Source: Escherichia phage MIZ6
Sequence record: OR192075.1
Direction: 5' to 3' (one strand)
Length of the DNA stretch: 64,000 nucleotides
Position numbers and translations under genes: made by a program. The notes beneath the pieces were generated by a model. It was not told the DNA's origin. It worked only from the letters and a program-made list of their open reading frames with translations, and ran no database searches. This document shows, piece after piece, positions 4,977 through 22,905 of the stretch; position 1 is the stretch's first letter; each line of letters begins with the position of its first letter.

Positions 4977-6645
4977 TCATTTCAGTGAATCGCCCACGTT
5001 TAACCATCTTGAGATGACGGCTAAAATCATCAGGGTTATGGTCACGATGGCTGATAATATACACGTTATCATCTAACTTGTCAATGATGGAATCAAGTGC
5101 TTTTACGCCTTGAACGTCCGTAGCCCCATCATAAATTTCGTCGAGTACCAACAAAGAAATATTAGTACCAGATACCTTACCAGCAACATCACGCCATGTA
5201 AAGAGCATCGCAAGATCAATACGTGCTTTTTCGCCTTGACTGAATGATGTATACGAAAACGATTCACGCCCCCGTGATTTGATTGTTTCGTTAAACTCTT
5301 CATCTAGCGTAAAGATATAATCCGCTTCCATGATATCAAGATAATATGCAATCCGATCATTGAAATATGGAATATATTTCTTGACGATAGACGCCTTAAC
5401 ACCGGAATCCTTCAACATTTCTGTTACAAATCCACGGTGATATTTTTCAAGAACTAGCTTTGATTTTTCATTAGTAATCTCTACCAGTTCGTGTTCCAGT
5501 TTAGCAAGTTCTTCGGAATTGTCAACCCTTTCTTTTTGTAATTCCTGAATTGCTTTCTGGATCTGCTTAGCACGACCTACAGATGCCGTTAAATTCGCTC
5601 TCTGTGACTCTATAGCGCGTTTAATTTCCAAGACCTTAGTTTGTGCTGTCTGGAAAGAATTGGCCTTCTCTGCGTACTCTACGCGTTTCTCGTCAATCAG
5701 AGACAGTTTATGTTCTGCTTGTGCTTTTTGTTCTCGTACAGCTTGATCATTACCCTGAATGATCGGTTGTGTGCACGTAGGACAGATCCCGCCTTTCTCA
5801 TGCATATGAATAACACGGTCAAAGTTCTGGATCTGTGCACCAATCTGTGCGATAGCCGTATTAATTTTAGCCAATGCCGCGCTAGGATCTTCCGGCATAA
5901 CAACAGCCAATAGCTCATCGGTCAAGCGCGTTTCTTCGGCTTTAAATGCTTTAGCAGATTCTACCTCTTTATCATACATATTCTGTAAACGCTGGAGATT
6001 CTCGGCACTCGCCTTGCTAGCGTCTTCTATGTACTTTTTATGAGTGTTGATTTGTTGCTGAACGTGATTAGCTTTCATTTCCTGCATTTGGATATTCTGG
6101 GTAATCTCGCGCACATACGCTTTATTCAGTTTATCCATTTCGCCTAGTGTAGCAATATCAAGCAAATCCTCGACCAGTTTACGGCGACCCGCTGCCGGAA
6201 GACTCATAAACGGAACATAACCAGCAGTGCCTAAAACAACGATCTGTTTAAAGCTGGCTAGGTTCATGCCTATGATACCTTCAAAATATTCCTGAAAGTC
6301 TTTGGTGCTTGCGCTCTCGTCGATCTTTTGACCGTCTCGATGCACTTCGAATACTTCCGGCTTTTGTCCACGTTTAATATAAAATTCTTTCCCGTCCAGT
6401 TCAAACCAGACTTCGACTAACAGTTTCTTTTTGTTGACGCTGTTAATCAATTGGCCTTTCTTGATACTACGAAACGGTTTACCGAACAACACAAAGCAAA
6501 GCGCCTCAATCATGGTCGATTTACCAGCACCGTTAACACCAGTGATTAGTGTCTTTTTGAATCCGTCTAGCTGAATCTCTACAGGTTCAGCACCCACGCT
6601 CATTATATTTTGATAGCGCAAGGTTTTAAAATTTAACTTTGCCAT
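4963..6645 (-). CDS. 46: recombination endonuclease subunit gp46 (Rad50/SbcC-like ATPase)
   Basis: Walker A GVNGAGKST, signature/D-loop region SQGEKARIDLAMLF...LVLDE; strong colinear similarity to T4 gp46 (NIMSVG...KTLITG...EKYHRG...). Start set at MAKLNF by alignment. Confidence 0.92.
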   Translation of the reverse strand: MAKLNFKTLRYQNIMSVGAEPVEIQLDGFKKTLITGVNGAGKSTMIEALCFVLFGKPFRSIKKGQLINSVNKKKLLVEVWFELDGKEFYIKRGQKPEVFEVHRDGQKIDESASTKDFQEYFEGIIGMNLASFKQIVVLGTAGYVPFMSLPAAGRRKLVEDLLDIATLGEMDKLNKAYVREITQNIQMQEMKANHVQQQINTHKKYIEDASKASAENLQRLQNMYDKEVESAKAFKAEETRLTDELLAVVMPEDPSAALAKINTAIAQIGAQIQNFDRVIHMHEKGGICPTCTQPIIQGNDQAVREQKAQAEHKLSLIDEKRVEYAEKANSFQTAQTKVLEIKRAIESQRANLTASVGRAKQIQKAIQELQKERVDNSEELAKLEHELVEITNEKSKLVLEKYHRGFVTEMLKDSGVKASIVKKYIPYFNDRIAYYLDIMEADYIFTLDEEFNETIKSRGRESFSYTSFSQGEKARIDLAMLFTWRDVAGKVSGTNISLLVLDEIYDGATDVQGVKALDSIIDKLDDNVYIISHRDHNPDDFSRHLKMVKRGRFTEMNVNI

Positions 6646-6889
6646 TAATCCACTCCGCAATCACACATTCCATAATATTAAATGCTAACACATCTTCATC
6701 AATGTTGTAAACACTTGCCGCCTTCACTTTAACTAATGTGTCTCTGCGATCTGGCAACATGATCACATAATCCAGTGTCGCAGGATCATATGTCATAAAG
6801 GGATCAACATAAATCCCTTTATTCAATGCCAGATATTCGCGAAGACCTTCTATAACCCTGTGTCTAAGGTAGGTCATCGATAGAATCAT
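6626..6889 (-). CDS. hypothetical protein (46.1-position)
   Basis: 87 aa ORF between genes 47 and 46. Confidence 0.4.
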   Translation of the reverse strand: MILSMTYLRHRVIEGLREYLALNKGIYVDPFMTYDPATLDYVIMLPDRRDTLVKVKAASVYNIDEDVLAFNIMECVIAEWINGKVKF

Positions 6890-7482
6890 TTTAGTTTATG
6901 TTCCTCTAAAAATTCTTCAATTTCACCTTGCAGGTCTTCCGCTTGCTGTTCCAGAATATCGCGAAATTCACCTACAGTCAAGCGGTAATCACATTTCACC
7001 AGTCGATGCGGGAGAATATACCCTTTATACATTGTCTCTGACGCTTCCAGGAATACCCCACTATGCATGACAGAGATCCAACCTGTTAACGTCAATGGAG
7101 TATTCGGAAAATAATACTTGCTGGATTGTTTCCACTGTACGAAAGCACCATATACAATAGGATTATATTCACCAACCACACTCTTAATAATGGATTCTAC
7201 TTTGTCTTTTACAAAGTCGCCAATGTCCATAGTTATCATCAACTCTTTTGGATGAATAATTTTAAGGTAACGACGATAGCCATCATCATAATACAGCTTA
7301 ACTACTGGTTCACCCCACATAGACGAAATATTCGCTTTCAGATATCCATAAATCGGATTCTTATCATATGATTGTTTTAGCGTGTAGGTATGCAACAGCG
7401 TAATAAAATGTCGCATTACCAGTTTATCTGGATCAGCCGCGACCATAGTCGTATTCATAATATGTTCCTCGTTCAATTTCAT
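6886..7482 (-). CDS. hypothetical protein
   Basis: 198 aa ORF, stop/start overlap with neighbours. Confidence 0.4.
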   Translation of the reverse strand: MKLNEEHIMNTTMVAADPDKLVMRHFITLLHTYTLKQSYDKNPIYGYLKANISSMWGEPVVKLYYDDGYRRYLKIIHPKELMITMDIGDFVKDKVESIIKSVVGEYNPIVYGAFVQWKQSSKYYFPNTPLTLTGWISVMHSGVFLEASETMYKGYILPHRLVKCDYRLTVGEFRDILEQQAEDLQGEIEEFLEEHKLK

Positions 7483-7750
7483 ATTGTTTCAGGTCTTCTA
7501 AAAGTTCATCCACTGCTTGTTTCAGCACATGACGCAGCGTAAAGTAATAGCTTTCATCAAATTCTATTTCCGCGCGAGGAATAGAGCGAAACTTACACTT
7601 AACGGTAGTATCAGTGAGTCGCTTTTCGACCATCATCCGAACTTCTTCATGCTCTTTGGAATACCATACATCAACGGAGATCCCCTTACGTCGAGCAAAC
7701 ATAGGCAATGCCGCATTAAATTCCATGACCTTTTGTGCAAGTGTTTTCAT
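7433..7750 (-). CDS. hypothetical protein
   Basis: 105 aa minus-strand ORF in the 46-47 interval. Confidence 0.35.
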   Translation of the reverse strand: MKTLAQKVMEFNAALPMFARRKGISVDVWYSKEHEEVRMMVEKRLTDTTVKCKFRSIPRAEIEFDESYYFTLRHVLKQAVDELLEDLKQYEIERGTYYEYDYGRG

Positions 7751-8010
7751 CGTACAGACCCCATAGATCCACGCGCAATAACATTCTGAGTAATATCAGC
7801 AACCTTACGGGATACGATGTTTGTTAGCCCCTCTTTGGTGATATGTTCACGATCAAATGGGATTTCGTCATGAGTCCATAAACCATAGTTAGACCGAAAT
7901 GATAGCATATACTGACCATCTCGCACAACCTCAAATACATGGATCTTAGTGAATTTCGATAAACCTTCGTTGATTTCTTTCAGTGCATTAGTAATCATAA
8001 CAACCTCCAA
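7747..8010 (-). CDS. hypothetical protein
   Basis: 87 aa minus-strand ORF directly downstream of gene 47. Confidence 0.35.
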   Translation of the reverse strand: MEVVMITNALKEINEGLSKFTKIHVFEVVRDGQYMLSFRSNYGLWTHDEIPFDREHITKEGLTNIVSRKVADITQNVIARGSMGSVR

Positions 8011-8052
8011 TCAATTTTTAGAGAGTATAACGGGGATTTCTCCCCGCGTCAA

Positions 8053-9078
8053 CTAACTTTTTGCGCTATTTACTTCGGCTAAAAGTTCATCAGAAATACG
8101 CTTGACCGCCGCAAGTTCTTCCGGTTCTAGGTTTTGTTCTTCCAGATATTCATAGACCATCTGAATAGTGCTTTTAACTTCAATAACACCTGTTTCCTGT
8201 GATGCGCTACTCTCCAGCTTATGGACCACTTTTAGCTTGTGTACAACGGCCTCTAACGCGCTTTCTAACTTACTTAACCCATTATCAGCAACCGTTGCGA
8301 TAAGACGCACACTAAGCCCCTTAAAGCGTTCTACATCGATTTTATCATCTGACGGGTAAGTGATACGCACATGATAAGTTTTATCATTCTGGATAAACTC
8401 TTTTTTGTGTGTATCGGTATCGAATACCCAAAAACCACGCGGATCGTTTTCGTCACCAGCCGTTAGTGTGTATGGTGTACCAATATACGTTACGTTACCG
8501 CCATCACTGATAGTATGAAAGTGACCAGAAAACACTTCACGGTATTTCTTGAGGAAGTCCGCGCTATAACCTTCTGATTTTAGCCCTTTATAGAAATAGT
8601 AACCGGACAATTCCCAATGGCCTACACAATATTCGCTGAATGAGTTTTGAATAAACTCTAAAATCTCTGATTTATTGTCATCACAAAACCACGGGAACAG
8701 ATCAAATGATACACCATCAAAGGTGACTGTTTCCGGCTTATCGATAACTTTAATACAATCATACTGGCTTAACACTTCACGCGGTGCGTTAGGCTGGATC
8801 TTGTTTCGTTTAAACATATCATGGTTCCCGACCGTGATATAACAAGTAATACCAGCCTCTTCCAGTAACGGGATGACCTTAGTGCGGTTAAATTTCATGG
8901 TTTCATGGGTAATTGCTTTTCGGCAATCAAACCAATCCCCTGTTTGAATCCATGTCTTAATATTATGCTCTTTGGAGTATTCAACCGCCTTCTTGATGGT
9001 ATCAAGAATATACTCATGCACCCACGGATCATCGCCACCGATACCAGTATGCAGATCACCTAAAAGCAAAATTTTCAT
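8053..9078 (-). CDS. 47: recombination endonuclease subunit gp47 (Mre11/SbcD-like phosphoesterase)
   Basis: 341 aa; N-terminal MKILLLGDLHTG metallophosphoesterase motif, GDWFD, GNHD; size and position match T4 gene 47. Confidence 0.9.
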   Translation of the reverse strand: MKILLLGDLHTGIGGDDPWVHEYILDTIKKAVEYSKEHNIKTWIQTGDWFDCRKAITHETMKFNRTKVIPLLEEAGITCYITVGNHDMFKRNKIQPNAPREVLSQYDCIKVIDKPETVTFDGVSFDLFPWFCDDNKSEILEFIQNSFSEYCVGHWELSGYYFYKGLKSEGYSADFLKKYREVFSGHFHTISDGGNVTYIGTPYTLTAGDENDPRGFWVFDTDTHKKEFIQNDKTYHVRITYPSDDKIDVERFKGLSVRLIATVADNGLSKLESALEAVVHKLKVVHKLESSASQETGVIEVKSTIQMVYEYLEEQNLEPEELAAVKRISDELLAEVNSAKS

Positions 9079-10248: not shown

Positions 10249-11718
10249 CTATTCCCCATTACCATTATACTTTCTTTGCTTAGTTATCCACACTCTAACC
10301 ATCTCTACGGATTCACCGTCAGACGGATCAAGAGTTTTTCCTTTTTTCTTCATGCGGTACTTAAATCCGTTAAATCTTGCATTCTCTTGCTCGTTAAAGT
10401 CGAACATCTTTTTAAATGATTTTCGCCCTTTACGCTCACCGCATTCTAGCGGAATCATTCGGTCTGTTATTACATTGGCATTAGGCAGAAACGTTTTTAG
10501 ATAATCCACCAACGCCCAATCAGGAACATATAGATTAACATTCTCCTTGCTCTCGTTGTCTCTCAGGTTACAACGCAAACATAATTGAAATGCTGGTTCC
10601 AGATAATCAGACACATGACGCGCTTTCAAAAACTCGTTTGTTGGGAGATCACAACTATTAGCAAGACCTTTTAAAATATCAATCTCCCATCGTTGAGGGT
10701 TAAAGCTGAACATCACAGCAACATTTTTATGATGAATGTAAGAGTTAAGACCATAAGATCCGTAAGGTATCCGCTCACCAATACCATTTGTGCACGCTTC
10801 ACGGTCCCGATTCACGGTATAAATGAAGTCATCACCACATTCATTTTTAACCATATCAACAAGACGTTCAAAGGTATTGTTTGTTTCTGACTGGTGACGC
10901 GACCATCGTTCGGAGTCCGTCATAAGGATGATGTTAACTCTATCTGTATTTTTATACTCTTTGAAATATAGTCTGGATTCTAGCGCACTCGGAACAAAAT
11001 CGCAATTTGCATAGTATCGTAGATACTTCCCACTATATGTATCAAAGAGATTTGCACATGCTATCGTAACCTTTTTAAAGTCTCCCCACGTACCGTGTTT
11101 GTTATCGTTCAAGAAAACAATTTTCGACCCATTCTTCCGGTGTCCTTCGTTATGTTTTACCATAACGTTGATTTTCTTCTCTAATAACGCCTCATAAAGC
11201 CCTCTAAGAGAAGAATCGATCATATCAGTACCATCCTTTGCACTTTCTATCTTTTCTTTGATAGCGGCCTTCTCAGAGTCTTTTAGAACTAAGTTCTGTA
11301 GGCATTCCGATTCGTCGGCGATTGGTTCGCAATGCTTCGTGATAAGTTCAAGATTAGACTTAAACGGATACTCATTAAATTCAACCAGTTGAGGAACTTC
11401 ATCAATGTAAAGAGCATATTCACCAAACATTTTTGAACGTTCCATATTAGATAACGCTGTATGTGTAATGAATATCACATCAGCACCATCTTTAACTGAT
11501 TGCATTATAGACGCTTGCACTGTCTTAAGGCTTCTTAGTCTTGTGCTATCAATCAAGACAGCACGACCGCCCATTCTTTTAAACTTATTGTAAGATTGTT
11601 CACTTAAAACACGAGATGGCGAAGCAATAACCGCTTTTTCTTTTGTCTCTAGGACGTGGGAAAGTATAGCATCAGTTTTCCCCGCCGCTGGCAATGCGAT
11701 TAATGTTTCAATCTTCAT
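10249..11718 (-). CDS. P-loop NTPase of unknown function (helicase-like N-terminal motifs, Cys-containing C-terminal half)
   Basis: 489 aa; deviant Walker A LPAAGKT near the N-terminus, ASPSRVL (motif Ia-like), hhhhDE at YIDEVPQ; C-terminal half has no recognisable domain. No T4 counterpart recognised; lies between gene 55 and nrdH. Confidence 0.55.
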   Translation of the reverse strand: MKIETLIALPAAGKTDAILSHVLETKEKAVIASPSRVLSEQSYNKFKRMGGRAVLIDSTRLRSLKTVQASIMQSVKDGADVIFITHTALSNMERSKMFGEYALYIDEVPQLVEFNEYPFKSNLELITKHCEPIADESECLQNLVLKDSEKAAIKEKIESAKDGTDMIDSSLRGLYEALLEKKINVMVKHNEGHRKNGSKIVFLNDNKHGTWGDFKKVTIACANLFDTYSGKYLRYYANCDFVPSALESRLYFKEYKNTDRVNIILMTDSERWSRHQSETNNTFERLVDMVKNECGDDFIYTVNRDREACTNGIGERIPYGSYGLNSYIHHKNVAVMFSFNPQRWEIDILKGLANSCDLPTNEFLKARHVSDYLEPAFQLCLRCNLRDNESKENVNLYVPDWALVDYLKTFLPNANVITDRMIPLECGERKGRKSFKKMFDFNEQENARFNGFKYRMKKKGKTLDPSDGESVEMVRVWITKQRKYNGNGE

Positions 11719-12174: not shown

Positions 12175-12444
12175 TCAATAATCATAAATCGCCCTCAGTT
12201 CTTTATAGCCTCCAATGTGCTCGTTGTTAATGAATATCTGGGGGTATACAAACCGGAGGCTCTTTGAGTTCAGCCTCCCCGCCAGTTCTTCAATCATATC
12301 ACGGTCGGGAATAATGTCAACCCCGACCTGCTTGAATACTGGTTTAAGTGTATACGGAATACCCAGATCATCCAGTAGCTTCATTGCACTAATACAACCA
12401 TAACAATGATAAGCCTCTTTCGGTATGCCGTATATCTCGATCAT
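12175..12444 (-). CDS. nrdH: glutaredoxin-like protein (NrdH-type)
   Basis: 89 aa; CYGC redox motif near the N-terminus and C-terminal YPQIFINNEHIGGY typical of the glutaredoxin/thioredoxin fold. Confidence 0.7.
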   Translation of the reverse strand: MIEIYGIPKEAYHCYGCISAMKLLDDLGIPYTLKPVFKQVGVDIIPDRDMIEELAGRLNSKSLRFVYPQIFINNEHIGGYKELRAIYDY

Positions 12445-12941
12445 TTCTCAGCCTTTAATCTTTCTAGTTCTTCTTCCAGTTCCTTGATCCGTTGGTCACG
12501 TTCAAAGTCACGTTGTAGCTTAGTGGCAAATACCCGCTTAAACTGATTGTAATCATCGATTTTAAACACTTCTTCTTCGCCATAGCGACGTACAGAAACT
12601 TCGTAGTTATTGAAGAATTGTTGCATCATTGCTTCGGATGATAGTTCTGCTGATACTACTTTAAAATATTGATCTTCTGTAGGCGAAAACCAATTACAAG
12701 CATAAAGATAAACCTTTTCATTGTCTGGGCACTGGTAAGCCTTACCATCGATTTCAATCACAGAAACATATTCAGGTATAGTAGATGAATCAATAGCTAA
12801 GACTTTAAACTGACGGTCCCCGATAAACTCAGAGATCACACGATTCGCATCACTGGTTGCAAAGGCTTTACGCGCTTGTTCGCTTTTCCACTGATAGGTC
12901 ATACCAACAACAAACATATTACCAACCTCGCTCTTTACCAA
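12441..12941 (-). CDS. repeat-domain family protein (single domain, coiled-coil tail)
   Basis: 166 aa; shares the GxTYxWK...F(K/T)V..(I/V)(E/D)..G...F(F/K)xV pattern with the neighbouring paralogues; C-terminal ELEEELERLKAEK. Confidence 0.5.
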   Translation of the reverse strand: MVKSEVGNMFVVGMTYQWKSEQARKAFATSDANRVISEFIGDRQFKVLAIDSSTIPEYVSVIEIDGKAYQCPDNEKVYLYACNWFSPTEDQYFKVVSAELSSEAMMQQFFNNYEVSVRRYGEEEVFKIDDYNQFKRVFATKLQRDFERDQRIKELEEELERLKAEK

Positions 12942-13743
12942 TCAAAAATTCAACTTCACGACGTTTAATGTCTTCTTGAAGGTCTTTAATCTTCTGGCGA
13001 TCTTGCATGATTTCGTCCATTTTGTCAAGTGCTGCAATAAAATCATCGAAACGTTCAAAGGTTTTACCTTCATTTGCTTCGCCAAATTTAACCATAGTCA
13101 GACCGTAACGACTACTAAACAGACGTTTCAACTGTCCAACGATCTTAGAATCAGTGGTTATAACTTCCAATTCTTCTACTTCTTGAAAGAATTTTCTATC
13201 AGAATCAATAAACCAGCTAGTTCCTTTATGGTTGCTATCTTCGGTTGCACTCATTAGAGTATGGTCTTTACCATCAATTTCAATTACATCAATTTGCCCA
13301 CATGGACGAACATTTTTAACAGTAAAAGGTCTATAATTTATTGCTCGTGCAATAACATAATTAAGGTTAGATACGTTTTCAGCATAATGGCAGAAGTCGG
13401 TCATAGCATTCGCATCTTTCCAAGTATAAGTTTTACCAACTTCCCATTTCTGGGGAACTTCTTCAACTTCACGAAAGAATTTTCTATCGAATGGACTAAA
13501 GAAATATGTTGCCGTCCAAATGTCTTTTCCTGTAGCAGTTTTCGCCGTATGATAAACACCGTCTAGCTCTATTGCATTAATCCAACCATTACCCTCGATC
13601 TCGATGATGGTAAATGGCTTGTCACCAATAGCTGCACTAATATCGCTATTAAGTGGAGAAAGAACACCTTCTCCGTTAGTAATAAACTCAGTTTTAGCGT
13701 TTACATCTTTCCAGGTGTAAGTTTTACCAATTTCCCATTTCAT
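12919..13743 (-). CDS. repeat-domain family protein with internal tandem duplication
   Basis: 274 aa; MKWEIGKTYTWKDVNAKTEF...FFREVEEV followed by KWEVGKTYTWKDANAMTDF...FFQEVEEL, i.e. two copies of the same roughly 98-aa domain. Confidence 0.5.
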   Translation of the reverse strand: MKWEIGKTYTWKDVNAKTEFITNGEGVLSPLNSDISAAIGDKPFTIIEIEGNGWINAIELDGVYHTAKTATGKDIWTATYFFSPFDRKFFREVEEVPQKWEVGKTYTWKDANAMTDFCHYAENVSNLNYVIARAINYRPFTVKNVRPCGQIDVIEIDGKDHTLMSATEDSNHKGTSWFIDSDRKFFQEVEELEVITTDSKIVGQLKRLFSSRYGLTMVKFGEANEGKTFERFDDFIAALDKMDEIMQDRQKIKDLQEDIKRREVEFLIGKERGW

Positions 13744-13755
13744 AATATATTCCCC

Positions 13756-14241
13756 TTAACCGATTTTATCAAGTTCGTTTAATGCTTTCTCTGCTTCCTG
13801 TATAGCTTGCACCCTTTCCGGCATTTTGTCAAGAAAATCTTTCAACTCTTCAAAACTGGAGATATGACGCAAGGCATTAGCACCGATAGCCGCATGTGAT
13901 TTGCATTCAAAGCGAATTTTATAATTATCCATAGCCAATTTGAGAAGATCAATTAGATCATATTCACGACCAGGCAATAAAACTTCTTTGAAGCACGCTC
14001 GGTCGCCATCGGAAAACCATATATTATCGCCAACATCGATAGAACTAATATAATCCCCTTCGTGATTATAGATTGAACGTACATTACCCCAACGGTCTAC
14101 AGTAGCGACAGTAAATGGTTTATCTAGATATGTAAACACACCATCAATATTAGGTTTTTGTTCGTAACGCCAACAATCACGCAAAATACGCTTTTCGTAC
14201 TCACCAACCAACTTATATGTCTTCCCTTCTTCCCATTTCAT
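13756..14241 (-). CDS. repeat-domain family protein
   Basis: Starts MKWEEGKTYKL (internal Met of the listed ORF); same domain pattern; C-terminal helical tail. Confidence 0.45.
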   Translation of the reverse strand: MKWEEGKTYKLVGEYEKRILRDCWRYEQKPNIDGVFTYLDKPFTVATVDRWGNVRSIYNHEGDYISSIDVGDNIWFSDGDRACFKEVLLPGREYDLIDLLKLAMDNYKIRFECKSHAAIGANALRHISSFEELKDFLDKMPERVQAIQEAEKALNELDKIG

Positions 14242-14245
14242 AATA

Positions 14246-14773
14246 TCATCTCTCATTTTTGATATGTGATTCTAATTGGATCATACGGTCGCGCGTTTGC
14301 TTATATTCTCGGATAGCACCGATCCGGCTAGGCATACCATCCAGTACGCTCTTAATCCCTTCTAGGGTAGTGATTTTAGCAATACTATTATGCAATCCCA
14401 TCTTATCGATTAACTGAATGTCGTAGGCTTCCATAAGCAGACCCAGACGTTCTAAAGTTAGGTCTTCTTCTTTTTCTTCCGATTCTGGAATCTTAGGTTC
14501 AATAGTAACTTCGGTAAAGAAACGACGCTCGCCCGACCAAAACCACACACCGGAACAGCCAATAGGGGATTCTTTTAACGTCATAGAGTCGTAACCGCTG
14601 CCGATAATAGTAATTTCTCTAACATCACCATCATCGTCAATGTCTTCTACCCTAAACGGGCGACCAGCCAACAAGTCAACAATACATCTGTTAATAGACG
14701 ACGAAAATTTAGTCAGTTCGGCTTTCGACGCTTCGCATTCAATCTTGTAAGTTTTACCAACTTCCCATTCCAT
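14246..14773 (-). CDS. repeat-domain family protein
   Basis: Starts MEWEVGKTYKI; same domain pattern, acidic linker, helical tail. Confidence 0.45.
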   Translation of the reverse strand: MEWEVGKTYKIECEASKAELTKFSSSINRCIVDLLAGRPFRVEDIDDDGDVREITIIGSGYDSMTLKESPIGCSGVWFWSGERRFFTEVTIEPKIPESEEKEEDLTLERLGLLMEAYDIQLIDKMGLHNSIAKITTLEGIKSVLDGMPSRIGAIREYKQTRDRMIQLESHIKNER

Positions 14774-14783
14774 AATAATCACC

Positions 14784-15293
14784 TCAAATAATTTTCACTG
14801 GAATACTATTAACAATCTTGTATTGTACTTGATTGTCAGACCCCCGCCACGGCTTCTTCGTTGGCATATCTTTAATATAACGACCATCGATGAACATGTC
14901 AACTGATTCTACAATTTTTCTTTGCTCATCATTCAATTGGTCAAGGGTATAACCAGACCATAGCCAAATATCTTTATTTGGCATCCATGATTTTACTTCA
15001 TCGATGATCCGCTGTACACCCTTTAAATTGCGTTTATACAGTGGATCGCCACCTAAGAATGTTAGCCCCTGAATAAAATCAGGTCTAAGCAGATCCAGAA
15101 TCAATCCCATTGTATCATCGGTGAATGGTTCCCCGTTCTTAGGATTGAGTATACTGGAATTAAAGCAACCATCACATGCGTGTGAACATCCGGTAACGTA
15201 AAGGGAGACTCTCACTCCCTCACCGTTAACCATATCACAATCTTTAATATCGGCATAGCGTAGTTTGCCGTATGTATCAGAACTCATATTCAA
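14784..15293 (-). CDS. nrdG: anaerobic ribonucleotide reductase activating protein (radical SAM)
   Basis: 169 aa; radical-SAM cysteine triad CSHACDGC with GGDPL glycine-rich motif; same locus as T4 nrdG. Confidence 0.85.
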   Translation of the reverse strand: MNMSSDTYGKLRYADIKDCDMVNGEGVRVSLYVTGCSHACDGCFNSSILNPKNGEPFTDDTMGLILDLLRPDFIQGLTFLGGDPLYKRNLKGVQRIIDEVKSWMPNKDIWLWSGYTLDQLNDEQRKIVESVDMFIDGRYIKDMPTKKPWRGSDNQVQYKIVNSIPVKII

Positions 15294-15471: not shown

Positions 15472-15500
15472 AGTATAGGGGATCTCGCGATCCCCGTCAA
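15472..15500 (-). promoter_or_regulatory. early-type sigma70 promoter with palindromic spacer
   Basis: Minus-strand TTGACG, 17-bp spacer GGGATCGCGAGATCCCC (perfect palindrome), TATACT; RBS GGAGAATCAAAT follows. Confidence 0.55.
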
Positions 15501-15504
15501 GCAT

Positions 15505-16053
15505 TTATTTTAAATTTTTTCGAATGTATTCAGACCATTCCTTCCCTGTCATTTCGGACCCGTTCTGGAAACTGAAATATTCATACGGCATCGAGTCAAG
15601 ATAAAACAGGATCATACATCGCGCCATATAATACCAATCACGATTAAAGTAAACTACGTTATCACCAGTACCATCAACCCCTTTATCATAACCATCGCGG
15701 GTACGGGCGACCCATTGAATAGTATCATTTTTCTCGCGGATCGTAACAGGTTCCCAATATCCAGCACATCCAGCATGACCACACGAACAAGTCAGGAAAT
15801 ATTGACCTTTTGCTTTGTTGTCATCCCATTCACGATGGATTGGTTCGATCTCGTGAAACAGTGCTAAGCAATCATGATTATGCAACACTGGCTTACCATC
15901 AATCAATGCATGGAATGTATACAAACGACCAGTAGACAAATAGCTATCCTCACGCTCAACCAGTTCAATAGCAATCTTTTTAGCTCGTTCTTTGTGTCGT
16001 TGTGCTTTACGCTTACGGTTTAATGATTTCATATTCACCTCACACATTATCAA
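15505..16053 (-). CDS. hypothetical protein (Cys/His-rich segment LTCSCGHAGCAGYW)
   Basis: 182 aa ORF between nrdD and nrdG (the locus where T4 carries mobE); basic N-terminus. Confidence 0.4.
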   Translation of the reverse strand: MIMCEVNMKSLNRKRKAQRHKERAKKIAIELVEREDSYLSTGRLYTFHALIDGKPVLHNHDCLALFHEIEPIHREWDDNKAKGQYFLTCSCGHAGCAGYWEPVTIREKNDTIQWVARTRDGYDKGVDGTGDNVVYFNRDWYYMARCMILFYLDSMPYEYFSFQNGSEMTGKEWSEYIRKNLK

Positions 16054-16460
16054 AGGTCGCGATATAGTACATTATGAAAATGAGAACTTGCATTACCAAT
16101 ATTGTAGATAATAAATTCTTCATCCGGCGCTTGCGCTACAAATTGAGTATGAGCAACCGCCACAACCTTAAAAATACGATCCGTGATCTTGTGTTTAATT
16201 TCTGCTCCTACTTCCATAGGAACATATTCATGTGTTTCTGTTTCAGTCGCAAAACAGCCATCTTCTTCATAAGCACGAACAAATCGATCGCAATCAGTAC
16301 GCTTAACAAATTCAAGAGTATATAATTCTCGTGAATTGTCGGTATAGACCAACACAGAATTATTCTGATAGCGAATCACATACAGGTTATTATCATCGTC
16401 AATTACGCAAAAGCTACGGATTTGTGTTCCTTCGCCTTTACTCCAGCAGATATTAACCAC
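16050..16460 (-). CDS. hypothetical protein
   Basis: 136 aa ORF, stop overlaps the next start. Confidence 0.4.
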   Translation of the reverse strand: MVNICWSKGEGTQIRSFCVIDDDNNLYVIRYQNNSVLVYTDNSRELYTLEFVKRTDCDRFVRAYEEDGCFATETETHEYVPMEVGAEIKHKITDRIFKVVAVAHTQFVAQAPDEEFIIYNIGNASSHFHNVLYRDL

Positions 16461-16594
16461 CGTTCCTCTAATAAAAAACTTTCCTTTAAATTAAAACTAG
16501 ACAATGTGCTAGCGTGCATTTTCACAACAACACCATCGCCAATTTCCAGTTTACGAAGTTTAACTTCTTTGCTCAGTACACAAAACATCATCAT
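16403..16594 (-). CDS. small hypothetical protein
   Basis: 63 aa ORF immediately downstream of the promoter at 16624-16652 and an RBS. Confidence 0.3.
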   Translation of the reverse strand: MMMFCVLSKEVKLRKLEIGDGVVVKMHASTLSSFNLKESFLLEERWLISAGVKAKEHKSVAFA

Positions 16595-16623
16595 GTTGTC
16601 CTCTCGTTGTTTTCGATGTGAGC

Positions 16624-16652
16624 ATTATACATTAGCTAATCATGTTGTCAAC
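16624..16652 (-). promoter_or_regulatory. early-type sigma70 promoter
   Basis: Minus-strand TTGACA, 17 bp, TATAAT, then CACATCGAAAAC leader and RBS. Confidence 0.6.
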
Positions 16653-16654
16653 AC

Positions 16655-16688
16655 CCCAAAACGAAAAAGCCGACCCTTTCGGATCGGC
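16655..16688 (-). terminator. rho-independent terminator after nrdD
   Basis: Minus-strand hairpin AGCCGATCCgaaaGGGTCGGCT followed by TTTTTCGTTTT. Confidence 0.6.
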
Positions 16689-16694
16689 TGAAAA

Positions 16695-18602: not shown

Positions 18603-19097
18603 TTATTTTACCAGTTCTGCTAATTCTTTTTCTTTAGCTTCCAGTTCAGCCTTAAGCTGTTTAATCTCTTGTCGCTTCTTATTAGCGGCTTCTTGCTTAC
18701 TATTTCGGATAACCTGATCTAGATACAACTCCCAATCCTGAATATTTTTGATAATATAACCGTCAACATTAATTGGTCGGATATTTAGTACAGCTTCCAG
18801 TTTAGTCGCAAAAACTTTAATTGCTGGGGTGAAGTATTCATATTCGTTATCTTCAAACCAATAACCTAGACTTGCATTATCAATACGAAGACGAAGTTCA
18901 AGATCAAGGTCTTTATCTTCGGTGTAAAGATCTTTCACCTGACCCAGCGAACTAACAACAACTTTAAAACGAATTTTATCTACACCACCAAACACATCAG
19001 TAAGTATACCAGCAATTGAGCTATTAGCGCAAGATTGGTCGCTGAATGCGTCAAGGTTTTCTTTAGTTACAGTATACCAAACATCTTGTACCCACAT
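18603..19097 (-). CDS. hypothetical protein with C-terminal coiled coil
   Basis: 164 aa; has its own promoter at 19128-19155; C-terminus KQLKAELEAKEKELAELVK. Confidence 0.4.
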   Translation of the reverse strand: MWVQDVWYTVTKENLDAFSDQSCANSSIAGILTDVFGGVDKIRFKVVVSSLGQVKDLYTEDKDLDLELRLRIDNASLGYWFEDNEYEYFTPAIKVFATKLEAVLNIRPINVDGYIIKNIQDWELYLDQVIRNSKQEAANKKRQEIKQLKAELEAKEKELAELVK

Positions 19098-19127: not shown

Positions 19128-19155
19128 ATTATAGCATACTCCCTTCGCATGTCAA
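19128..19155 (-). promoter_or_regulatory. early-type sigma70 promoter with hairpin around the -10
   Basis: Minus-strand TTGACA, 16 bp, TATAAT; -10 lies within inverted repeat GGGAGTAT...ATACTCCC. Confidence 0.55.
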
Positions 19156-20393: not shown

Positions 20394-20954
20394 TTAAAGT
20401 GACTTTTGGATCTCTTTCAGTTCAGCTACTTTATCGGCGCTGAATTTAGCGTAGGTATCATGTCGAATAATTTCACTTTCAAGAAAGGTTTCCAGCCGAG
20501 ATCTATTTTCAATAAGGAACTCTTTCAGGTCTTCCGCGTTCTTGATAAAGATTTTATTGTCAGTAATGTCATCTTCAATCGCAAAGGAGATAGAGCGAAC
20601 TTTACCAAACAAGTTAATCAGATCTTCCAGCGATTCTTCTTTCTTAACTGGTTTCATTTCTTCAAACTGCTTTTTAGTGATGCGTTTAAAGTATTTGCGC
20701 TCGTTTGCAGCAATCAGAACAGATGCACCTTCATACCCATGAGTTTCTACCAGATACACACGCCCCATCGCATCAACAGTGAGAACTTTAAAGCCGTTAC
20801 AAAGCACGTCATACAAGAACTTATTATGTTGCGGACATCGTTTGATAAATTCTGCGGCTGTTTCTGCACTACGGAAAGTATAGTAACGACCTCGTTCAAA
20901 AACAGCATCATTTGAAGACTTAGCCGGATACAATTTATACGTTTTCTGTACCAT
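20394..20954 (-). CDS. repeat-domain family protein
   Basis: Starts MVQKTYKL after RBS AGAGGAT; contains NGFKVLTVD...ERKYFKRITKKQF. Confidence 0.45.
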   Translation of the reverse strand: MVQKTYKLYPAKSSNDAVFERGRYYTFRSAETAAEFIKRCPQHNKFLYDVLCNGFKVLTVDAMGRVYLVETHGYEGASVLIAANERKYFKRITKKQFEEMKPVKKEESLEDLINLFGKVRSISFAIEDDITDNKIFIKNAEDLKEFLIENRSRLETFLESEIIRHDTYAKFSADKVAELKEIQKSL

Positions 20955-20968
20955 AATATAATCCTCTA

Positions 20969-21241
20969 TCATTTCACTAATTGAACAGCACGAAACAGAA
21001 TGCGGTCACACGGAAGAAGCATAAATTCCCAACGCGGATCAAAGTCTTTAGCGGTATATGTTTTCCCATCAACCGAGATTTCACTTACATAACCAATAGG
21101 TGACACTTTAAGAACAGTAAACCCATTCTTGATGACTTCGTAGGTATCTTTCAATCCTTCGTAGTCATCCTCTAGGAAGTCTTTACGTGCTTGCTCAGAT
21201 TTAAAAACATAGGCAACACCGGATTTAAACATCTTACGCAT
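20969..21241 (-). CDS. repeat-domain family protein (short)
   Basis: Starts MRKMFKSG after GGAGAATCAACA; KSEQARKDF shared with the 12441 protein; own promoter at 21273-21301. Confidence 0.45.
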   Translation of the reverse strand: MRKMFKSGVAYVFKSEQARKDFLEDDYEGLKDTYEVIKNGFTVLKVSPIGYVSEISVDGKTYTAKDFDPRWEFMLLPCDRILFRAVQLVK

Positions 21242-21272: not shown

Positions 21273-21301
21273 ATTTTACTACTCCCATTTCTTATTGTCA
21301 A
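21273..21301 (-). promoter_or_regulatory. early-type sigma70 promoter with hairpin around the -10
   Basis: Minus-strand TTGACA, 17 bp, TAAAAT inside ATGGGAGTAGTAAAATACTCCCAT. Confidence 0.5.
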
Positions 21302-21802: not shown

Positions 21803-22084
21803 TTAACCATTAATCTTGTTTTTGACTACAAAGGATCGGAACTCATCAAAGCCACCGATATAATCACCATCATAGAAAATCTGCGGCATGGTGGCAATAA
21901 CTTCTACCCCTGCGCGATCCTGAATGTCGGCAATGATAGAATCAATCTTTACCGGACGACCGTTTTCGTCCACACCATCATTGACAGGAATATAGATGTA
22001 AGGGATCTTACGCGATTCACAAAGGCGCTTTGCATTCTGGCAATACTTACAGTTGTAACCTTCAAAACCAAAAATTTCTACCAT
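21803..22084 (-). CDS. nrdC: glutaredoxin/thioredoxin-like protein (NrdC-like)
   Basis: CKYCQNAKRL redox motif and TMPQIFYDGDYIGGFDEF parallel T4 NrdC; start set at MVEIFG with GAGG RBS. Confidence 0.75.
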   Translation of the reverse strand: MVEIFGFEGYNCKYCQNAKRLCESRKIPYIYIPVNDGVDENGRPVKIDSIIADIQDRAGVEVIATMPQIFYDGDYIGGFDEFRSFVVKNKING

Positions 22085-22092
22085 GTTGTACC

Positions 22093-22905
22093 TCAATCTA
22101 CGTTAGTTACATAAACTTCTTGTGTATCAGAAGACTTACCACCTGAACGATCTAGGCAATAGGTCTTATTCAACAGGACGCAGTTTAAATCATTCCGCTT
22201 GATAAAGTCAAGAAGATGATCATTTACCTTTCCCTTATGATGTGTGACATTACTGATACCAAACTGAAAACCACGCGCCATAATAGATTCTACCCACTGA
22301 TAGAATTTAATCTCTTCCTCGTCACTCCAGAACTTATTATATTCCGCAGAAGTGATAAGGTACGGCGGGTCCAAATAAACGAAATCACCTGGCAAGATCT
22401 CGATCTCGTCATAACGACCAGACGTAAAACTGATTCGACCGTCTTTGTTTTCTTCCTTAAAATTCAGGACACGCTCTACCGCGTTTTCGTTAAAAGTCCG
22501 GCGACCAAAATTAGCATTAAATTCGCCCTTCCGGTTATGGCGGTTAAGGTTGCTAAAACTGTGCTGAATCAACACAAACAGCGATAGCGGATCTGGATTC
22601 TCGTTATACTTCTTACGGAATGCCATGTAAGCATCTTTATCATCGCGAGACAAACCATTTTCGGCAATAATCCGCTTGATCGTAGAAACCGGATCAGGAC
22701 ACTCGTCAATGGCCTTGTAAGCATCAATTAAGCGGTGATCATAGTCATTAGCCAGAACATCCCCTTCGACGTACAGAGACACGCTCAAACCGCCACAAAA
22801 GGCATCGACAAAGCGGTTATAGTGCTTAGGGAAATATTTACTAACACCGGGCAATAACTTTTCCTTATTGCCCGTATAGGGAATTAAACCTAATGCTTTC
22901 TTCAT
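22093..22905 (-). CDS. dam: DNA adenine methyltransferase (Dam, GATC-type N6-adenine MTase)
   Basis: 270 aa; YTGNK, RFVDAFCGGLSVSL (SAM motif), DFVYLDPPYLITSAEYNKFWSDEEE; strongly colinear with T4 Dam as recalled. Confidence 0.92.
   Translation of the reverse strand: MKKALGLIPYTGNKEKLLPGVSKYFPKHYNRFVDAFCGGLSVSLYVEGDVLANDYDHRLIDAYKAIDECPDPVSTIKRIIAENGLSRDDKDAYMAFRKKYNENPDPLSLFVLIQHSFSNLNRHNRKGEFNANFGRRTFNENAVERVLNFKEENKDGRISFTSGRYDEIEILPGDFVYLDPPYLITSAEYNKFWSDEEEIKFYQWVESIMARGFQFGISNVTHHKGKVNDHLLDFIKRNDLNCVLLNKTYCLDRSGGKSSDTQEVYVTNVD

Follow-up and report, generated by a model that had tools for sequence, protein, structure and literature searches.

An expanded family of GoF/Frd.2-related barrel proteins and its allelic variation in Krischvirus phages

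The gene family and its loci

The stretch of DNA analysed here, hereafter called the window, comprises 64,000 nucleotides of Escherichia phage MIZ6 (sequence record OR192075.1), and the subject of the analysis is a family of small proteins that share a domain of about 90 amino acids, referred to below as the barrel, and are encoded on both sides of the gene nrdD. Over the 3.2-kb region that contains the first gene cluster, the sequence agrees with Escherichia phage MIZ2 at 100% and with 56 further records at 90-99% identity, and the phage is a Krischvirus (RB49/Phi1/GEC-3S type), a T4-like coliphage. The four genes of this cluster (gA to gD) are tightly packed, all lie on the minus strand, and are flanked by nrdG (14784-15287) and by a gene for an nrdH-like glutaredoxin (12175-12444). 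An earlier note on this DNA, made from the sequence alone, had described a cluster of four such genes; the genes are indeed there, but the size of the family was understated. A hidden Markov model (HMM) built from the five domain copies of gA-gD detected four further members (gE to gH) across nrdD from gA-gD, in the interval up to gene 49, and a ninth member is encoded outside the window. The family thus amounts to eight genes with 11 barrels in the window and nine genes with 12 barrels in the genome, as follows:

14246-14773, minus strand: gA, 175 amino acids; GoF-like barrel (14498-14773), acidic linker and conserved tail (14246-14497)
13756-14241, minus strand: gB, 161 amino acids; barrel (13975-14241), dimorphic in the genus, and tail (13756-13974)
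12919-13743, minus strand: gC, 274 amino acids; tandem barrels N1 (13456-13743) and N2 (13168-13455), and tail (12919-13167)
12441-12917, minus strand: gD, 158 amino acids from the ATG at 12917; barrel (12645-12917) and tail (12441-12644)
18603-19097, minus strand: gE, 164 amino acids, the most divergent member; barrel and tail with a charged terminal helix
19152-20330, minus strand: gF, 392 amino acids; three tandem barrels and tail; named 'frd.2' in the RB49 record
20394-20960, minus strand: gG, 188 amino acids; basic barrel (isoelectric point, pI, 9.6) and tail
20969-21241, minus strand: gH, 90 amino acids; barrel alone, without tail
90696-91331 of MIZ2, outside the window, flanked by gene 41 (helicase) and gene 61 (primase): ninth member, 211 amino acids

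The ninth member (phrog_16187) combines a barrel with a tail that is helical and charged, and its counterpart in ECD7 is named 'Dc2' in BFVD. The starts of gA-gD (ATG at 14773, 14241, 13743 and 12917) were assigned from ribosome-binding sites and from the annotation of GEC-3S and RB49; since both favour the ATG at 12917, gD spans 12441-12917 and not 12441-12941. In existing records gA-gD are labelled 'hypothetical' throughout, and gG is labelled 'mRNA metabolism modulator' in MIZ2 and 'goF mRNA metabolism modulator' in RefSeq records. None of the eight window genes is disrupted in any of the genomes examined.

The locus had previously been likened to a site that holds mobile or accessory genes in T4, which is only loosely right: the T4 gap between nrdH and nrdG contains gene 55.8 only, mobC is placed in the nrdG-nrdD interval, and nrdD and gene 49 are directly adjacent. 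The slot syntenic to that of T4 goF (gene 39.2 to dexA) is empty in MIZ2. Yersinia phage MHG19, a member of the Tevenvirinae, encodes four consecutive GoF-like genes, one of them with two barrels, at 5918-8744; this array is flanked by dexA and gene 39, at the locus syntenic to that of T4 goF. Genes in tandem arrays and proteins with more than one barrel hence characterise the family in general, and the expansion near the nrd genes is specific to the Krischvirus lineage. A role linked to the anaerobic ribonucleotide reductase was considered and rejected, because the T4 nrd locus is without such genes and family members elsewhere are located at unrelated loci.

Homology, fold and architecture of the proteins

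The five domain copies of gA-gD align over about 90 residues with 24-49% identity, the highest value being that of the two tandem copies in gC, a duplication that the earlier note had already recognised. The copies share an invariant core (G-K-x-Y, P-F-x-V, a G-x-V turn, W-F and E-R-x-F-F-x-E-V); the opening (K/E)WExGKTY is as first described, and the ending is seen as (F/Y)FxEV. Each of the four proteins matches phrog_5347 over its full length (E-values 1e-59 to 1e-91). A compositional or low-complexity artefact is excluded, since the composition of the region is ordinary (G+C content 0.36-0.43) and since an HMM built exclusively from distant relatives outside Krischvirus recovers all eight window genes (E-values 2e-10 to 8e-41; 4e-13 to 8e-41 for gA-gD). 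Within the second cluster, gE is matched by the five-copy HMM (E-value 2e-3) and by the independent family HMM (2e-10), and belongs with phrog_15067 and phrog_3710 by its matches. Three domains are found in gF, with E-values of about 1e-26 each against a profile (A3) derived from these very copies, and of 1e-12 to 7e-11 with the independent family HMM. Furthermore, gF matches phrog_8944, 'goF mRNA metabolism modulator', with an E-value of 1e-208, and gG matches phrog_8944 as well.

At the level of sequence profiles, the domain of gA-gH is homologous to the N-terminal domain of the T4 proteins GoF and Frd.2. Indeed, (i) an hhalign comparison of a profile of 11 window copies gave a probability of 95.9% (E-value 5e-9) with T4 GoF, over GoF residues 1-91, and of 92% with Frd.2, (ii) a profile of 39 sequences raised these values to 97.2% (4e-11) for GoF and 93.4% (2e-7) for Frd.2, and (iii) phrog_622, which gA-gD match as well, includes both GoF and Frd.2, and GoF in turn matches phrog_5347. 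The similarity to MotB.1 is marginal (34%). The family is thus that of the GoF/Frd.2 group with an 'LSm-like fold', first recognised in 2025, and the genes described here are new and mostly unannotated members of it. That these are paralogues expanded in a plastic region, and of the host-takeover type, had been proposed before any homologue was identified, and both proposals are supported: the paralogy is real, and GoF and Frd.2, to which the family is related, are early, non-essential T4 proteins of that type.

Other searches delimit the family. An exhaustive hmmsearch of 1.84 billion representatives returned 59 hits, of which about 47 are proteins of roughly 90-400 amino acids and one is a GoF orthologue; the long hits with multiple matching stretches appear spurious, and the one inspected was a repetitive protein covering only profile positions 33-68. 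A word-indexed protein search retrieved close Krischvirus relatives only. For the family and the region, no significant match was obtained in Pfam, NCBIfam, PADLOC, Rfam or a search of PDB sequences. No window protein matches the Pfam profile FRD2 (PF03197) even at an E-value of up to 1, although T4 Frd.2 itself scores 133 bits; the Pfam LSM and Hfq profiles likewise match none of them, and there is no Sm/Hfq structure match. In PADLOC, whose models describe defence and not anti-defence systems, only sub-threshold matches were obtained (E-value at least 0.003), on the helical tail.

The domain is modelled as an SH3/FeoA-like beta-barrel, a bent antiparallel sheet of five strands, of about 90 amino acids with a two-helix insertion. 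In the AlphaFold2 models of gA (model confidence, pLDDT, 78) and gC (83.6), blocks of ten residues in the barrel score 76-95 and 67-95, respectively, mostly near 90, and the order of predicted elements is beta1, two helices, beta2-beta4, a short helix and beta5. The acidic linker is modelled as disordered (pLDDT below 50 at residues 94-103 of gA and 193-196 of gC). It is followed by a conserved module of about 70-80 amino acids (helix, beta-hairpin, long helix), which is predicted to fold separately. The earlier note had described most copies as followed by an acidic or coiled-coil tail; the tail is in fact this module together with the acidic linker. The architecture is therefore modular, with one to three N-terminal barrels, an acidic linker and a C-terminal module, gH being reduced to the barrel. 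Nine of the 11 window barrels are acidic (pI 4.3-6.2), and those of gG and gH are basic or neutral.

Foldseek against BFVD identified 62 structural relatives. Every one of the 50 listed is an uncharacterised phage protein, and among these the ones whose source is named belong for the most part to T4-like phages with many different hosts. No anti-defence homologue of a known kind is among the structural matches. The nearest solved structural neighbours include the SH3-like domains of FeoA and IdeR, with which the resemblance is one of fold only (8-14% identity, no Pfam FeoA match, no evident metal-binding histidines). T4 GoF (ComC-alpha), Frd.2 and MotB.1 (PMC12152347) have these same structural neighbours, an N-terminal barrel of about 90 amino acids, and the layout of N-terminal domain, acidic linker and small C-terminal domain; they too are small proteins of T4-type phages encoded in plastic regions, which are early-gene regions in T4 and probably so here. 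Krischvirus, which unlike T4 lies outside the Tevenvirinae, differs from T4 in having nine genes with 12 barrels instead of three single-barrel genes, in having two- and three-barrel proteins, in a different and longer C-terminal module with a terminal helix of about 25-40 residues, and in the position of the genes around nrdD and nrdG, away from the goF slot. A homology of the tail with the C-terminal domains of GoF and Frd.2 was not retained, because the hhalign alignments stop at the linker; the match of GoF to phrog_5347 is the only hint in that direction.

Exchange of barrel alleles among Krischvirus genomes

A detailed comparison of alleles was carried out on six Krischvirus genomes over a region of 9.7 kb, with amino-acid identities expressed relative to the window, and allele counts were made on 58 Krischvirus records. 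The identities were as follows:

nrdH, nrdG, nrdD, gp49 and nrdC: 97-100% across the compared genomes
gA barrel: 47% in FL04
gB barrel: 47% in RB49, JK32 and AV108
gC-N2 barrel: 38-44% in JK32 and FL04
gD barrel: 64% in FL04
gE barrel: 52% in JK32
gF-N3 barrel: about 82%
gG barrel: about 79%
Tails: 92-100%, except the gE tail in JK32 (85%)

With alleles of the gA, gB, gC-N2, gD, gE, gF-N3 and gG barrels at 38-83% identity, the repeat domain is by far the most variable sequence among otherwise near-identical phages. No more than a few codons from the ATG, nucleotide identity, 96-100% until then, drops to 43-65%, and it rises again sharply at the first helix of the tail; barrel and linker are exchanged as a unit between Krischvirus genomes, the tail being left untouched. 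Synonymous divergence (dS) of the barrels is saturated in the five most diverged (0.9-2.8) and reaches 0.45-0.55 in gC-N2, 0.54-0.61 in gG and 0.15-0.17 in gF-N3, whereas that of the tails is 0.02-0.54, with nonsynonymous divergence (dN) close to 0. The dN/dS ratio of the divergent alleles (pairwise NG86) is 0.15-0.57 and always below 1. These ratios, together with saturated dS and breakpoints at the domain edges, indicate old, functional alleles brought in by recombination. Diversifying selection had been suggested for this locus at the outset; the site of the variability was rightly identified, and its mode is recombinational allele replacement. Positive selection by point mutation was rejected, as the ratio never reaches 1.

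Deeply diverged barrel alleles coexist at intermediate frequency and assort independently. In the 58 records, the alleles of gB are bimodal without intermediates, with 28 at 90% identity or more and 30 at about 42%, and those of gC-N2 are bimodal in the same way (53 versus 5). A search with gA returned 63 records, including five that belong to other genera; 51 were at 90% or more, one was at 75%, and the rest, with those five among them, were below 60%. The polymorphisms of gB and gG are each near 50:50. A coupling of gB and gG alleles, perfect in the six genomes, vanished across about 50 distinct genomes, where the four combinations occur 14, 12, 11 and 13 times, i.e. in linkage equilibrium; as all four combinations are present, recombination between the two genes must be free. 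AV108 shows an exact loss of gC-N1, and other variants retain a single N1-like barrel only. Gene conversion between paralogues was tried as the origin of the divergent alleles and rejected, because the credible identity to the best paralogue does not exceed about 45%, values of 50% being artefacts of short alignments; the ortholog identity of the deepest alleles, for comparison, is 38-47%. In the adjacent 8 kb, the differences amount to an indel of a homing endonuclease and to a few blocks in which identity is 71-86%; comparably deep blocks are absent there.

Conserved nucleotide blocks at the domain edges are plausibly the recombination joints. A 32-nucleotide block (D1), whose four copies are 78-94% identical, is a conserved feature of the 5' edge of segments that encode barrels, where allele breakpoints are located, and two further blocks, D2 (57 nucleotides, 82%) and D3 (30 nucleotides, 90%), flank both edges of N1 and N2. 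The copies of D1 are:

13425-13456, minus strand: D1
13716-13747: D1
14214-14245: D1
14746-14777: D1

Recombination at short conserved sequences, and the insertion of a deeply diverged module into near-identical genomes, are shared with the shuffling of other modules in T4-type phages, namely the PeSL cassettes of RB49 and phi1 (PMC2839356) and the adhesins of tail fibres (PMC3157838). Here, however, the exchanged element is a sub-genic domain in small non-structural genes, and the joints are coding sequence instead of a promoter or stem-loop.

Other features were observed in and near the compared region. The phrog_14838 gene at 16050-16595 (minus strand) is split into open reading frames (ORFs) of 63 and 136 amino acids. 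The split is caused by a T-run one base shorter than in GEC-3S and RB49 (T6 instead of T7), which is either a genuine frameshift or an error in sequencing the homopolymer. Downstream of nrdD, a strong terminator-like hairpin (16668-16689, minus strand) is directly followed by a 12/12 match to a sigma-70 promoter (16624-16651); the pair (16624-16689) resembles the PeSLs, combinations of promoter and stem-loop that are reported to mediate the shuffling of modules in RB49 and phi1, and it adjoins the gene for which JK32 has a replacement. At about 9080, beside gene 47, RB49 and JK32 carry an HNH/AP2-type endonuclease gene of approximately 550 bp that is absent from the window, GEC-3S, FL04 and AV108, and in its carriers the adjacent 180 bp are at about 82% identity, as expected for homing-associated co-conversion. 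At 21803-22905, nrdC is directly followed by dam, and GEC-3S has an HNH homing endonuclease gene between the two. Finally, a conserved ORF of 489 amino acids (RB49ORF044c; 10249-11718, minus strand) is situated between gene 55 and 55.2, with a possible P-loop-like ALPAAGKT near its start.

Possible function and competing explanations

Family members are dispensable in T4. The mutant GoF(D25Y) stabilises gene 41 mRNA, whose half-life is prolonged, but wild-type GoF does not and is inactive in the reporter; Kim et al. named the fold of GoF, of Frd.2 and of MotB.1 'LSm-like' in the same work (PMC12152347). The goF mutations D25Y and G84R suppress rho alleles, AlphaFold 3 (AF3) gave no confident homo-oligomers for GoF, and GoF pull-downs recovered essentially GoF itself only. 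In a CRISPRi-ART screen, T4 frd.2 counted among the fitness genes (PMC11879866). In the columns equivalent to GoF D25 and G84, on which two HMM alignments agree, gA has F/R, gC-N2 has Y/K and gF-N1 has F/K; these native aromatic and basic residues are a lead rather than a result.

Four promoter-like sites, which are consensus matches only and largely coincide with promoters annotated in GEC-3S, accompany the two clusters:

19128-19155, minus strand: sigma-70-type promoter-like site (12/12), upstream of gE
21273-21301, minus strand: sigma-70-like site, upstream of gH
14874-14902, minus strand: sigma-70-like site, upstream of gA
15472-15500, minus strand: sigma-70-like site, upstream of nrdG and the first cluster

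On balance, and with moderate confidence, we favour an account in which these genes form an expanded GoF/Frd.2 family whose cassette-exchanged barrel is the binding module of early proteins. The genes would be expressed early from sigma-70-type promoters, the barrel would recognise a macromolecule, of the host or of the phage, with a part in mRNA fate or host takeover, and the tail would be a constant scaffold, perhaps oligomerising. Tandem barrels, or pairing mediated by the tail, could make binding multivalent, and the diversity of alleles would reflect variable targets among hosts. A bolder extension, which we regard as speculative and rather improbable, would make the barrels interchangeable specificity cassettes in a repertoire driven by recombination, with the balanced gB and gG alleles recognising polymorphic host targets of RNA decay or immunity; gA, gC-N2 and gF-N1 would then natively hold the activity that T4 GoF gains by D25Y or G84R, as proposed from the aromatic and basic residues already present at both positions.

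Several observations weigh against the favoured account. No wild-type member of the family has a demonstrated function. The acidity of most barrels makes simple RNA binding less likely. The unrelated gene at 16050-16595, within the 9.7 kb compared, is also replaced in JK32, by an allele of 46-78% identity, so that recombinational replacement is not unique to the barrel family. The promoter scan was not enriched over shuffled sequences (35 versus 28.4 +/- 5.5). The homology of the tails between paralogues is weak at the sequence level, and a crude heptad test was significant for gF only among the window proteins, so that a coiled-coil tail in general was abandoned and the term 'long helix' is used instead.

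The proteins could alternatively serve counter-defence, as the earlier note had suggested, with barrels that bind or mimic variable components of host immunity and with alleles kept by frequency-dependent selection. Accessory genes in plastic regions, discrete and independently assorting alleles at intermediate frequency (28:30 for gB), and a variation limited to the putative binding module would all be expected of an arms race; nevertheless, this explanation seems unlikely, as dN/dS never exceeds 1 (0.15-0.57), neither a defence-related profile nor a known anti-defence homologue was found among the profile and structural matches, respectively, and the phenotypes of the family are confined to the level of mRNA and rho alleles. 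That the proteins are instead true RNA chaperones of the Hfq/Sm type, i.e. rings that bind RNA directly and stabilise phage messages, draws on the LSm-like designation of the fold, on the longer mRNA half-life with GoF(D25Y), on the residues resembling D25Y and G84R in several window barrels and on the basic or neutral character of gG and gH. Against it stand the lack of Pfam LSM/Hfq matches, the acidity of most barrels, the lack of confident AF3 homo-oligomers of GoF and the inactivity of wild-type GoF in the reporter, which leave it improbable.

Equally improbable is that the barrels are Tudor-like domains binding RNA polymerase, comparable to CarD or the C-terminal domains of UvrD/PcrA, and act as modulators of transcription directed at RNA polymerase or Rho: such a role would fit the original idea of ComC-alpha as an antitermination factor and the suppression of rho alleles by goF mutations, but the reporter work indicates a post-transcriptional effect and the GoF pull-downs yielded essentially GoF alone. 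Finally, the dispensability of the T4 members and the allele replacement in the neighbouring unrelated ORF might suggest functionless or weakly constrained filler ORFs, whose similarity would reflect recent duplication and whose diversity would be neutral mosaicism. This is very improbable in view of the dN/dS of 0.15-0.57 even where dS is saturated, the near absence of dN in the tails, the intactness of the eight genes in all genomes examined, the conservation of the family over many genera of T4-like phages and the scoring of T4 frd.2 as a fitness gene.

The GoF protein has reportedly been an unsolved T4 gene product since the rho/nusD suppressor work. For this family, phages of the RB49 type provide a natural experiment, with nine paralogues, two- and three-barrel forms and deletions of single domains, and they add variant features to it, namely proteins with more than one barrel, a distinct type of tail and barrel alleles that are balanced. 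The exchange of cassettes at the level of a domain is shown here in small non-structural phage genes, and near-isogenic genomes that carry deeply diverged barrels on identical tails make the partner and the role of the barrel testable by allele swaps.

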